A stretch of DNA of 13,071 bases from a virus. Its lineage: Duplodnaviria > Heunggongvirae > Uroviricota > Caudoviricetes. Position 1 is the stretch's first letter. The number at the start of each line of letters is the position of its first letter. The translations under genes were made by a program, and so were the position numbers. The stretch covers positions 1-13,071 of the IMG/VR virus record IMGVR_UViG_2681813316_000016. One strand, 5' to 3'. The notes below the pieces were generated by a model. It was given only the letters and a program-made list of their open reading frames with translations, had not been told where the DNA came from and searched no databases. Below, one piece after another: positions 4,007 through 7,185 of the stretch.

Positions 4007-4143
4007 TGTTTGAGTTTAATATGGCAGAACTTCTTCGCCACCGCTGGGGGCGTCTGCGCTTATATCGTTTCCCCGGTTCTGTTTTGACCGATTACCGAAT
4101 ACTGAAGAATTACGCCAAAACCCTGACAGGAGCAGGAGTATGA
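4003..4143 (+). CDS. ylcG: YlcG-like small protein (46 aa)
   Basis: ATG 4003 overlapping rusA stop; [46 protein letters not shown]; position between rusA and the Q homolog as in DLP12. Confidence 0.55.
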
Positions 4144-4228
4144 AGTCAGAGATAACAATCAACTAATACTGTTTTGTTGATTTTTGCTTGTAATTGGCGT
4201 TCTGGTCTGATTTTTGTGGAGTAAGTTG

Positions 4229-4612
4229 ATGCGTGATATTCAGATGGCTCTTGAGCGTTGGGGAGCGTGGGCGGCTAATAATCATGAAGATGTGACCTGG
4301 TCGTCCATTGCCGCCGGTTTTAAGGGATTAATTCCTTCAAAAGTAAAATCTCGCCCACAATGTTGTGACGATGACGCGATGAGCATTTGCGGGTGCATGG
4401 CCCGTCTGAAAAAGAACAACAGCGATTTGCACGATTTATTAGTAGATTATTATGTAGTCGGTATGACATTCATGTCACTGGCAGGTAAGCATTGCTGCTC
4501 TGATGGTTATATCGGGAAAAGGTTACAGAAGGCTGAGGGTATAATTGAAGGGATGTTAATGGCATTAGATATCCGGTTAGAGATGGATATCGTTGTTAAT
4601 AACTCTAATTAA
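4229..4612 (+). CDS. quuD: Late-gene antiterminator Q homolog (QuuD-like, 127 aa)
   Basis: ATG 4229 within track ORF 4214..4612, GGAG upstream; [24 protein letters not shown]...; Cys-rich centre; location upstream of the lysis cassette. Confidence 0.75.
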
Positions 4613-4645
4613 TATGCCAATTGTTTACTAAAAATTATTAAAAAT

Positions 4646-4663
4646 GGGGCGTTGAGACGCCCC
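4646..4663 (-). terminator. Intrinsic terminator hairpin (GGGGCGT / ACGCCCC, 7-bp stem, 4-nt loop), U-run on the minus strand
   Basis: Read directly; on the minus strand the stem is followed by ATTTTTAATAATTTTT; on the plus strand an A-tract precedes it. Lies between convergent quuD and porin gene. Confidence 0.5.
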
Positions 4664-4801
4664 CAAAAATAAAGGGTAATATATAACAGAAGGTTTATAT
4701 AGTTAGAAGCAAGGTTGTGCTTCTAAAGGAAGTGGCTTGAGGGAGCCACTTATATGTTGGGGAGGGAACGCCTCCCGCAACATATCTTTTTCGTAATCAG
4801 A

Positions 4802-5899
4802 TTAGAACTGGTAAACCAGACCTACAGCAACGATGTCATCAGTGCTTACACCGAGTGCTTTAGTGAAGTCATTTTTGTCAAGCAGGTTGATTTTGTAATC
4901 AACGAAAGTAGACATATTTTTGTTGAAGTAATAGGTTGCACCTACATCAACATATTTGACTAAGTCCTGATCGCCCCATACTCCAAGATCCTTACCTTTA
5001 GATTGCAGGTAAGCAACGGACGGACGCAGACCGAAATCGAACTGATATTGTGCAACAGCTTCGAAGTTTTGGGCTTTATTAGCAACGAAGTGATCAGCAA
5101 ATACAGTCATATTCTGGGTTTCAGAATAGGTAGTGGCCAGGTAAATGTTGTTAGCGTCATATTTCAGACCTGCGGCCCAAACTTCTGCATTTTTACCGGA
5201 AGCAAATACTTCAGGAAGAACTTTCCCTGCATTAACTTGAGTGTCGGTACGATCAGATTTCGCATAAGTTGCACCGATACCGAATCCTTCGTATTCATAG
5301 GTAGCAGAGAAACCGAAGCCATCACCGTTACCTTCAGTGTAGTTATCGAAATCGCTACGATCGTTTTTGCCTTGGTACTGAGCAGCAAAGTTCAGACCAT
5401 CAACCAGACCAAAGAAGTCGTTGTTACGATAGGTTGCAACACCAGTGGTGCGACCAGTCATGAACACATCTGTTTGGGTCCAGGTATCGCCACCGAATTC
5501 TGGCAGAACGTCAGTCCACGCACCGATGTCGTATGCTACACCGTAGTTACGGCCGTAATCGATGGAGCCGTAGTCACCGAATTTCAGGCCAGCGAAGGCA
5601 AGACGGGTTTTATCTTTGGAGGAACCTTGAGATTCAGCGCGGTTGCCTTTGAATTCATATTCCCACTGACCGAAACCAGTCAGTTGATCGTTGATTTGGG
5701 TTTCACCTTTGAAGCCAAGACGGGCATAAGTAGTATCACCATCATCTGCATCATTAGAGGAGAAGTAGTGCTTAGCATTAACTTTCCCGTACAGATCCAG
5801 CTTGTTACTGTCTTTATTATAAATTTCAGCTGCCTGAGCAGACATCGCCATCAGTACTGATGCAGCTACAGCAGAAATTGCCACTGTTAATTTTTTCAT
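4802..5899 (-). CDS. nmpC: Outer-membrane porin, NmpC/OmpD family (365 aa, intact, with signal peptide)
   Basis: Track ORF; signal peptide [23 protein letters not shown] then [16 protein letters not shown]...; porin-typical aromatic-rich strands and C-terminal VYQF. Confidence 0.9.
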
Positions 5900-6180
5900 C
5901 GTGAGCCCTTTTTTTTGAACTATTATTAAAAAATGATGTCACTGCGCGATAAATATTCATCTAATCAATGTGATTATTTCAAGATGTAAGTTTTGGTTTC
6001 TCGTTTAATTTGTGAAGTAGATCTCTATTTTTATCTAAACTTTTTTCTATCGAATCCTATTCATGGCTCTTGGCTGAATAAAAATAAATCTATTAGCCAA
6101 TTTATATTAATGGCTGTTATTTATAAGCGCTCTATAATTTGAAGGTTCAATTTAAACTGGCTAAAAATAACGCTGGAAAT

Positions 6181-6202
6181 TATTTGTTGGTTATTTGTTG
6201 AG
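6181..6202. repeat. Tandem 11-bp direct repeat (ttatttgttgg / ttatttgttga)
   Basis: Read directly in the AT-rich region upstream of the porin gene; one helical turn per unit suggests a protein-binding site. Confidence 0.4.
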
Positions 6203-6269
6203 ATTTGCTTATGTATTTGTAGTGGTGTTTTCAATACTCGGTAGCATTCTCGCAAATATCATTTAGTGG

Positions 6270-6297
6270 TTTACGTACGTAAAAAATTGGTTATGCT
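6270..6297 (+). promoter_or_regulatory. Candidate late promoter (pR'-like): TTTACG / TTACGT ... TATGCT
   Basis: Hexamers read by eye with about 15-16 bp spacing; only supported by the downstream plus-strand terminator and the position upstream of the lysis cassette. Confidence 0.25.
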
Positions 6298-6327
6298 GTT
6301 AAGAGTGGTTACTTCGTCACACAGCTT

Positions 6328-6360
6328 AAACCCGCCGTCGAGCGGGTTTTTCCATTTTTT
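6328..6360 (+). terminator. Intrinsic terminator (AAACCCGC / GCGGGTTT stem, 6-nt loop, T-run); candidate tR'
   Basis: Read directly; no plus-strand gene upstream, so it would end a short leader transcript, as with lambdoid tR'. Confidence 0.55.
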
Positions 6361-6472
6361 GAGTCTCGATATTAGCTGATAACCCAATACCTGAGTTATT
6401 CACTGACTCCGAGTCTGTTACGTTTCGTAGTATTCCCTCAATTTACACCCGCTTTGTCTGCGAGGTGGGGTT

Positions 6473-6688
6473 ATGAAATCCATGGATAAGTTAACAACGG
6501 GTGTCGCCTATGGCACCTCAGCAGGTAGTGCCGGGTACTGGTTTTTACAGCTGCTCGATAAAGTCACGCCCTCACAGTGGGCAGCAATAGGTGTGCTGGG
6601 TAGCCTGGTATTTGGCCTGCTGACGTACCTGACAAACCTTTATTTCAAGATTAAAGAAGATAAGCGCAAGGCTGCGAGAGGTGAATAA
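6473..6688 (+). CDS. essD: Class II holin / pinholin, phage 21 S-like (71 aa), with dual-start motif MKSM
   Basis: Track ORF; [26 protein letters not shown]...[19 protein letters not shown] closely resembles S21 as recalled; two transmembrane segments; ATGs at 6473 and 6482. Confidence 0.9.
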
Positions 6689-7185
6689 TGCCTCCATCAT
6701 TACGAAAAGCTGTTGCTGCTGCTATTGGTGGCGGGGCTATTGCTATAGCATCTGTGTTAATCACTGGCCCAAGTGGTAACGATGGTCTGGAAGGTGTGAG
6801 ACATAATCCTTACAAAGACATAGTTGGTGTATGGACTGTATGTTACGGGCATACAGGAAAAGACATCATTCCCGGTAAAACGTATACCGAAGCAGAGTGC
6901 AAAGCCCTCCTGAATAAAGACCTTGCCACTGTCGCCAGACAAATTAACCGGTACATCAAAGTCGATATACCGGAAACAACGCGCGGCGCTCTTTACTCGT
7001 TCGTCTACAACGTGGGTGCTGGCAATTTCAGAACATCGACGCTTCTTCGCAAAATAAACCAGGGTGATATTAAAGGCGCATGTGATCAGCTACGGCGCTG
7101 GACATACGCTGGCGGTAATCAATGGAAAGGACTGATGACTCGCCGTGAGATTGAGCGTGAAGTCTGTTTGTGGGGGAAACAATGA
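6688..7185 (+). CDS. rrrD: SAR endolysin (phage 21 R-like lysozyme, 165 aa)
   Basis: Track ORF; N-terminal Gly/Ala-rich signal-anchor-release segment [20 protein letters not shown]; start overlaps holin stop (TAATG). Confidence 0.9.

Follow-up and report, generated by a model that had tools for sequence, protein, structure and literature searches.

The stretch of DNA analysed here, a window of 13,071 nucleotides, very probably carries at 6270–6353 the Q-dependent late unit, consisting of pR′ and a leader terminator, of a DLP12/qsr′-type lambdoid prophage. Judged by sequence comparison, it is an ordinary pR′ module of the 933W type, the same kind of unit as the one that drives Shiga-toxin expression in 933W, which has become displaced from its Q gene by a porin cassette. 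That the unit is of a kind already known follows from how common the locus is: the window's intergenic region is 99% identical to that of DLP12 in K-12 and is found in 2,665 of 5,426 complete E. coli genomes. The segment running from Q to the lysozyme gene is present at 90–99% identity in dozens of sequenced phages, one of them a derivative of phage 434 (434B) that acquired it. In the two records that were inspected, the RefSeq record of K-12 and that of 434B, the pR′ homologue carries no annotation. The features discussed below are the following, in window coordinates.

4229–4612, plus strand: intact Q antiterminator gene quuD (127 aa; PF06530, E = 8e-52)
4613–4801, minus strand: porin 3′ UTR, with a minus-strand intrinsic terminator at 4646–4663 (terminator scan)
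4802–5899, minus strand: intact porin gene of the nmpC/lc/OmpD-like type (PF00267, E = 1e-156)
5917–5948, plus strand: the published 'essDp', with sigma-E-like GAACT (5917–5921) and TCACT (5939–5943) and an inferred +1 at about 5948, as far as the published primers and the hexamers place it
6180–6201, no strand assigned: tandem 11-mer TTATTTGTTGG TTATTTGTTGA, 10 of 11 positions matching, in the AT-rich region upstream of the porin (TRF: 6180–6200, period 11, 1.9 copies)
6270–6283, no strand assigned: perfect 14-bp palindrome TTTACGTACGTAAA, centred at -27.5 and overlapping the -35 element, a candidate Q-binding element
6270–6297, plus strand: pR′ homologue with -35 TTTACG (6270–6275), a 16-bp spacer and -10 TATGCT (6292–6297), from alignment to the pR′ of 933W and VT1-Sakai
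6298–6327, plus strand: conserved initial transcribed region GTTAAGAGTGGTTACTTCGTCACACAGCTT with a weak 4-bp hairpin (6305–6308/6317–6320), from conservation and folding
6304, plus strand: predicted transcription start, an A 7 nt past the -10 element, equivalent to base L004:A746 of Sakai
6328–6353, plus strand: intrinsic terminator AAACCCGCCGTCGAGCGGGTTT, stem 6328–6335/6342–6349, U-tract 6347–6351 (scan and fold)
6473–6688, plus strand: P21-type holin (PF04971, E = 2e-35)
6688–7185, plus strand: lysozyme (PF00959, E = 2e-48)

An intact cognate Q lies upstream of the unit on the same strand, 1,688 nt from the leader and thus not adjacent to it, and the lysis and late genes, represented by the holin and the lysozyme, lie downstream on the strand of the promoter. 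An earlier note on this DNA had placed the end of Q at 4612 and an intact, inverted porin gene between Q and the late unit, and the PF06530 and PF00267 matches bear out both placements. The length of QuuD is counted here from the methionine of MRDIQ, which replaces the TTG start of the open reading frame. The protein is 77% identical to Q933W and belongs by sequence to the Q21 family (PF06530), matching the Q21 structures 6jnx and 6p18 with E = 3e-7 as a single sequence and 8.5e-10 as a profile. The same porin gene (nmpC in K-12) is disrupted by IS5 in K-12 and in 434B. Porin and holin are separated by an AT-rich intergenic region of 573 bp, and the claim that no plus-strand gene precedes the terminator stands, as 5900–6472 holds no plus-strand open reading frame longer than 49 aa. 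The region at 4613–4801 probably corresponds to the porin 3′ UTR RNA IpeX, reported by Castillo-Keller et al. 2006. Also in the gap between Q and porin, at about 4744–4795, the plus strand has a long imperfect hairpin followed by T5, which could stop transcription leaving Q before it enters the porin gene in antisense. As to how this arrangement arose, a self-contained porin cassette comprising promoter region, gene, 3′ UTR and terminator would have been inserted, facing the other way, in the interval from the end of Q to the -35 region, leaving Q and the pR′ unit about 1.7 kb apart.

The evidence for the promoter comes from homology, which is observed directly. A distant BLAST of 6000–6472 against phage records returned 356 matches, most of them covering only 6269–6351. 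This stretch is 77–78% identical to 933W, VT1-Sakai and phi24B, in which the matching sequence is annotated as promoter, qut and terminator right after Q, and 85–96% identical to other lambdoid phages. In the alignment to the Stx phages the -35 TTTACG is identical, the -10 reads TATGCT in the window and TATCAT in the phages, the AAGAGTGGTTAC that follows the -10 is identical, and a CCCGCC...GCGGG hairpin with a U-tract is common to both. Because promoter and activator together have their homologues in a late unit that has been characterised experimentally, the pR′-type interpretation is supported, and with it the proposal of a lambdoid pR′-qut-tR′ arrangement made in the earlier note. The promoter-like hexamers to which that note had pointed hold up by alignment to annotated pR′ sequences, and not by consensus: the consensus scanner listed no sigma-70 site in 5900–6472, TTTACG-16-TATGCT scoring 8 of 12, one under the cut-off, such that the promoter is recognisable by homology only. 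Across five DLP12-type lineages the hexamers at 6270–6297 are unchanged.

The start site can be carried over from the Stx phages. Sy et al. (PMC7547250) identified the pR′ start in Sakai by dRNA-seq, with the 3′ end at tR′ lying 258 nt downstream, and reported an RNase E cut between GU and AUU at +173 of the transcript. In the Sakai sequence a single base, the A before GTGG, fits both distances (258 nt, and the unique GUAUU at +173), so that the position of the mapped start in the homologue is likewise directly established. By homology with 933W and Sakai, then, the window holds a predicted sigma-70 promoter, the base equivalent to the mapped start being A6304. The interval directly after quuD (4613–4800) was considered as an alternative site for the late promoter and rejected, since it has no promoter-like site and no copy of the leader and contains the minus-strand terminator of the porin; beyond 6298–6316, no second leader copy was found elsewhere in the window. 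A side observation concerns the sequence just upstream of the palindrome, where most relatives (e.g., 933W, L002 660–700) have an A-tract at about -46 to -38 that resembles a proximal UP-element subsite. The window lacks this tract because porin-cassette DNA begins right at -36.

A different promoter has been published for these lysis genes, the sigma-E-dependent 'essDp' (Rueggeberg et al. 2013 and 2015), with a start at about 5948 by the porin start codon; were it the lysis-gene promoter, 6270–6353 would be a relic or a mere barrier, a reading that we consider distinctly unlikely. In the cloning details of Pasqua et al. (PMC7918800), the fragment spans -121 to +650 relative to the lysis-operon promoter as Rueggeberg et al. 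2015 had defined it, and the primers given there map to 5827 and about 6596 of the window, with both ends placing +1 at about 5948. As far as these details go, the locus is the same one (K-12, 99% identical) and so is the claim that QuuD controls the lysis cassette, whereas the published start lies about 355 bp upstream of 6304 and is assigned to sigma-E. The sequence GAACT-N17-TCACT, 18–44 bp from the start codon of the opposite-strand porin, does resemble a sigma-E promoter and coincides with the inferred essDp start. In the 2015 work of Rueggeberg et al., RpoE reportedly drove transcription in vitro, and Q-dependent expression is said to have required the -35 region. However, the essDp region is porin-cassette DNA and is absent from 933W, 1720a-02 and other phages that have Q directly beside pR′, and a region that is absent where a related Q abuts pR′ cannot be the target of this Q family. 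In addition, the site overlaps the porin 5′ UTR and ribosome-binding region, which by itself could account for its conservation; both of its hexamers are changed in strain A23; and known Q proteins of the family are loaded where polymerase pauses close to a sigma-70 promoter (PMC6606751). The two promoters are compatible and not mutually exclusive, and essDp may be a real, additional, stress-responsive promoter whose transcripts would meet the terminator at 6328–6351. A Q-dependent start at about 6304 in place of the published sigma-E start at about 5948 would alter the design and the reading of reporter and deletion experiments on the cassette.

Between pR′ and the late genes there is an intrinsic terminator at 6328–6351, the presence of which is again directly demonstrated. 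The note's plus-strand intrinsic terminator is confirmed by scan and fold, which place its stem at 6328–6349 and its U-tract up to about 6351. The hairpin has eight pairs, five of them G-C, a 6-nt loop and the tail TTCCATTTTT, and the UUUUU at 6347–6351 is followed by CCAUUUUUU. When the RNA of 6304–6358 was folded, the hairpin appeared in both the MFE and the centroid structures, and the predicted terminated RNA is about 48–50 nt long. In 4100–7000 the scan listed 4 terminator-like sites, compared with 2.4 ± 1.4 in shuffles, and gave 6328–6349 as the only one on the plus strand between porin and holin. Rfam searches of 4550–6500 at gathering and permissive thresholds returned no family; a Trp-leader match on the terminator, the only one above noise, was dismissed as a chance match. 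The supplements of PMC7815308 contain no K-12 3′-end data for the DLP12 locus.

The terminator is conserved in position. Among the matches listed, a strict terminator ends at +42 to +58 in 61 of 70 unique leaders, and the remaining nine have the same hairpin with a single change. Several leader variants carry unrelated hairpin sequences at the terminator's position, which argues that termination itself is under selection. Within five DLP12-type lineages (84–99% identity), 6268–6351 is invariant save for two substitutions, one in the small 5′ hairpin and one in the terminator stem. The latter is a G>T change in the 3′ arm in the E8 lineage (L013; GAGCTGG, at the equivalent of window position 6344), which breaks a G-C pair and probably weakens termination, and it recurs in at least 16 IMG/VR loci, a common DLP12 lineage. 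Strain A23 is homologous from the porin up to and including the terminator, and right after the U-tract the homology gives way to a different late region with a methyltransferase and a lambda-type holin; this stop directly past the U-tract marks the unit as a module boundary.

It may be asked whether the hairpin terminates at all. It could instead be a pause or RNA element of the conserved leader, acting in Q loading or transcript stability, in which case DLP12-type prophages would be without a true tR′, and a weak promoter or other silencing would keep their lysis genes down. We regard this as unlikely, even though the 258-nt primary transcript of Sakai crosses the homologous hairpin, there with a longer U-tract, to reach a downstream terminator (PMC7547250). 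The leader is also conserved far beyond what a terminator requires, a frequent lineage has a mismatch in the stem, and low-level expression of the DLP12 lysis genes in K-12 has been reported (PMC7918800). The hairpin nevertheless has canonical terminator features, and relatives in which the 3′ part of the leader is different carry unrelated terminator hairpins at an equal distance. Moreover, we infer that an RNA of about 50 nt could escape RNA-seq size selection, so read-through in the Stx phages is no measure of termination efficiency.

We retain 6328–6351 as a terminator, while its strength is a matter of interpretation. Since Stx transcripts pass the homologous hairpin to +258, this hairpin may be leaky as the sole terminator; with no second plus-strand terminator in the window before the holin, silencing of the lysis genes may likewise be leaky or need other factors. 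The tR′ label of the earlier note thus holds in part: hairpin and U-tract are homologous to the first hairpin of the Stx phages, but the tR′ that was mapped there is the one at +258.

The Stx phages 933W, Sp5 and Sp15, the source of the small RNA StxS, are a close term of comparison. They have the same -35, a similar -10 and the same palindrome type as the window, and a nearly identical initial transcribed sequence with a matching first hairpin and U-tract. They differ in that their -35 lies within the 3′ end of Q and the Q stop is 18 nt ahead of the leader motif (in 933W, in the promoter spacer), whereas 1,688 nt including the porin intervene in the window. The second terminator at +258 and the 74-nt StxS segment are both missing from the window: a search for this terminator and for the 74-nt RNase E product gave no plus-strand terminator before 6473 and no Rfam match, and since homology to 933W ends at about 6351–6360, the window is without a StxS homologue. 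The pR′ biology of Stx phages, with constitutive firing in lysogens and a short leader RNA, would extend to many non-Stx prophages.

The initial transcribed region is kept across phages that differ in -35, spacer and Q clade, and 6298–6327 is presumed to be the pause and Q-loading segment. Pausing there is an interpretation: a by-eye search of the leader for a -10-like sigma-dependent pause element gave no convincing assignment, the best candidates, TTACTT and TACTTC at +6 to +12, matching the -10 consensus poorly (933W has TACATT and phi467 TAACTT). For the conservation of the leader beyond the needs of a terminator, the likeliest explanation is that these phages have in common a segment for pausing and loading that fits the conserved N-terminus of Q; a role as a recombination junction or as a small RNA is a less likely alternative.

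Whereas the leader is conserved, the sequence upstream of the -10 differs among relatives. A scan of viral contigs with the leader motif found at least 119 loci, which together with the loci fetched earlier gave 68 unique promoter-leader variants; a scan of genome contigs with a 14-base pattern gave chance matches in unrelated phyla only. The matches listed comprise 52 unique upstream segments, and in 43 of these the longest perfect palindrome has its centre at -27.5 or -28, compared with 1.2% of shuffles. Six palindrome types were found, TTTACG(TA/AT)CGTAAA, GCGTACGC, GCGGTCCGC, TGGAATTCCA, TTCGTTACGAA and TGTTATAACA, usually with an A-tract after each. When the Q proteins are clustered at 68% identity, the clusters map one-to-one onto palindrome type (113 loci among the matches listed), a pairing that is directly observed; the type of sequence just 3′ of the terminator reassorts freely among the same clusters. 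Physical linkage of Q to a nearby site could add to this association, and the same Q-palindrome pairs are kept where differing insertions of up to 2.9 kb hold them apart.

Within Q itself, the N-terminal half is conserved across clusters and residues of about 62–100, the helix-turn-helix, are variable, a division that at the level of sequence mirrors the conserved leader and the variable palindrome. We infer from these patterns that the palindrome is bound by Q, and it is proposed as the candidate Q-binding element of the QuuD/Q933W branch. One IMG/VR contig (L116) encodes a Q chimera: its first 35 residues bear no relation to Q (by eye they are LexA-like, which is a guess), and fused to them is a helix-turn-helix half of the QuuD type. 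The palindrome that goes with this chimera is still of type A, TTTACAATCGTAAA, which suggests that it is the C-terminal half of Q that sets DNA specificity.

The comparison with phage 21 is instructive here. QuuD and Q21 are members of one protein family (PF06530), and the two systems would share their logic, with a DNA site inside the promoter (in the window a candidate), a pause close to the promoter (in the window a presumed one) and a terminator. The site of Q21 consists of two direct TGAGCA repeats, with mutated base pairs at -21 and -13 (PMC6606751). When such an element was looked for between -35 and -10, 6270–6297 (TTTACGTACGTAAAAAATTGGTTATGCT) showed neither TGAGCA nor a direct repeat; where the Q21 site has direct repeats, the window promoter has an inverted repeat centred at -27.5. 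The proteins differ accordingly in build: Q21 has 162 aa and a helix-turn[loop]-helix, whereas QuuD with its 127 aa is 35 aa shorter, and its profile alignment to Q21 ends before the long loop of the latter. The pR′-qut-tR′ unit of lambda (6S RNA) would be alike in that its late promoter fires constitutively, its leader RNA is short and terminated, and Q lets transcription run on into the lysis genes. The Q of lambda comes from an unrelated protein family, and its leader measures 194 nt; the window differs in that its predicted leader is about 50 nt and its Q is not adjacent to the promoter.

Taken further, and tentatively, the Q proteins of the QuuD/Q933W branch may read a dyad site centred at -27.5 or -28 that overlaps the -35, by means of a short canonical helix-turn-helix and probably as a symmetric dimer, in a loading geometry unlike that of Q21 or lambda Q. 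There would be at least six Q/palindrome specificity classes using one shared leader, and opposite-strand cargo and defence genes, which stay outside late transcription, would land preferentially at the junction of Q and its site. We would place the whole of this proposal somewhat short of an even chance. The pairing of Q clade and palindrome offers a simple, testable specificity code for the Q alleles that are used as STEC markers and may merit follow-up.

A sequence of events can be envisioned for the window. Sigma-70 RNA polymerase would initiate constitutively at A6304 by way of TTTACG-16-TATGCT, and as long as Q is absent most transcripts would end at the 6328–6351 hairpin and U-tract. 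Once made, QuuD would bind the promoter DNA, the likeliest site being the 14-bp palindrome at -34 to -21, and load on polymerase that is still inside the conserved initial transcribed region; the loaded QuuD would then allow read-through into the holin, endolysin and spanin genes. The unit would in this way set the timing of lysis gene transcription in DLP12-type prophages, whose intergenic region is found in about half of the complete E. coli genomes.

The inverted porin is one case of a general pattern of opposite-strand cargo. Among the matches listed, Q adjoins the leader (6–41 nt) in 29 loci and is 0.6–2.9 kb away from it in 84, and the open reading frames in the gap (L016–L134), which represent more than 30 unrelated families, lie with few exceptions on the opposite strand. 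The porin occupies the gap in 40 loci, always with the type A palindrome and promoter, again among the matches listed; other cargo includes a KAP-family NTPase, a KwaB-like protein, an AAA_15/AAA_21 ATPase and NA37-type proteins. The interval from Q to pR′ looks like a hotspot for morons or anti-phage defence, and it is worth mining for cargo and defence genes. Known moron cargo, namely lc/nmpC of PA-2 and DLP12 and stx, is similar: in each case an accessory gene that brings its own promoter and terminator has been inserted into the late regulatory region. However, stx lies downstream of pR′-tR′ on the same strand and under Q control, whereas the porin and more than 30 other cargo families among the matches listed are found upstream of pR′, where they face the other way and escape Q-dependent transcription.

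The earlier note had also drawn attention to the tandem 11-bp repeat as a possible regulator site for either of the divergent units. The repeat is there, as TRF finds it, but the regulatory part of the suggestion fared less well, and that the two copies form a pair of operator sites through which a regulator acts on the porin promoter or pR′ is in our view very improbable. Its appeal lies in the two adjoining copies being about one helical turn apart and in their position between divergent units. An equally good adjacent repeat arose in 27 of 1000 dinucleotide shuffles of the 573-bp intergenic region; the rarity of comparable repeats, 2.7% of shuffles, speaks for an operator to some extent, and it makes the repeat only mildly unusual. 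In K-12 (G>T), E8, 1W and A23 the first copy has been altered, the second being mostly retained, and the flanks are no less conserved than the repeat. Furthermore, the repeat occupies -124 to -103 relative to the pR′ start, and no pR′ homologue without the porin has it. With copies degenerate in K-12 and other lineages, nothing supports a paired regulator site. Aligned with the regulatory region of K-12 ompC, the porin upstream region shows no real homology, so no OmpR box can be read into the 11-mer.

Three further observations lie outside the unit. At 6436/6437, in the 5′ leader of the holin, a 17-bp segment (CTGCTTTTTTGCGATAC) present in NCTC9087, E8 and phage 1W is missing from the window and from K-12. 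Far upstream on the plus strand, Rfam gives gathering-level matches to isrK at 576–648 (61.9 bits) and, at 673–760 (82.5 bits), to C4 antisense RNA, an RNA of the P1/P7 type in antirepressor control.
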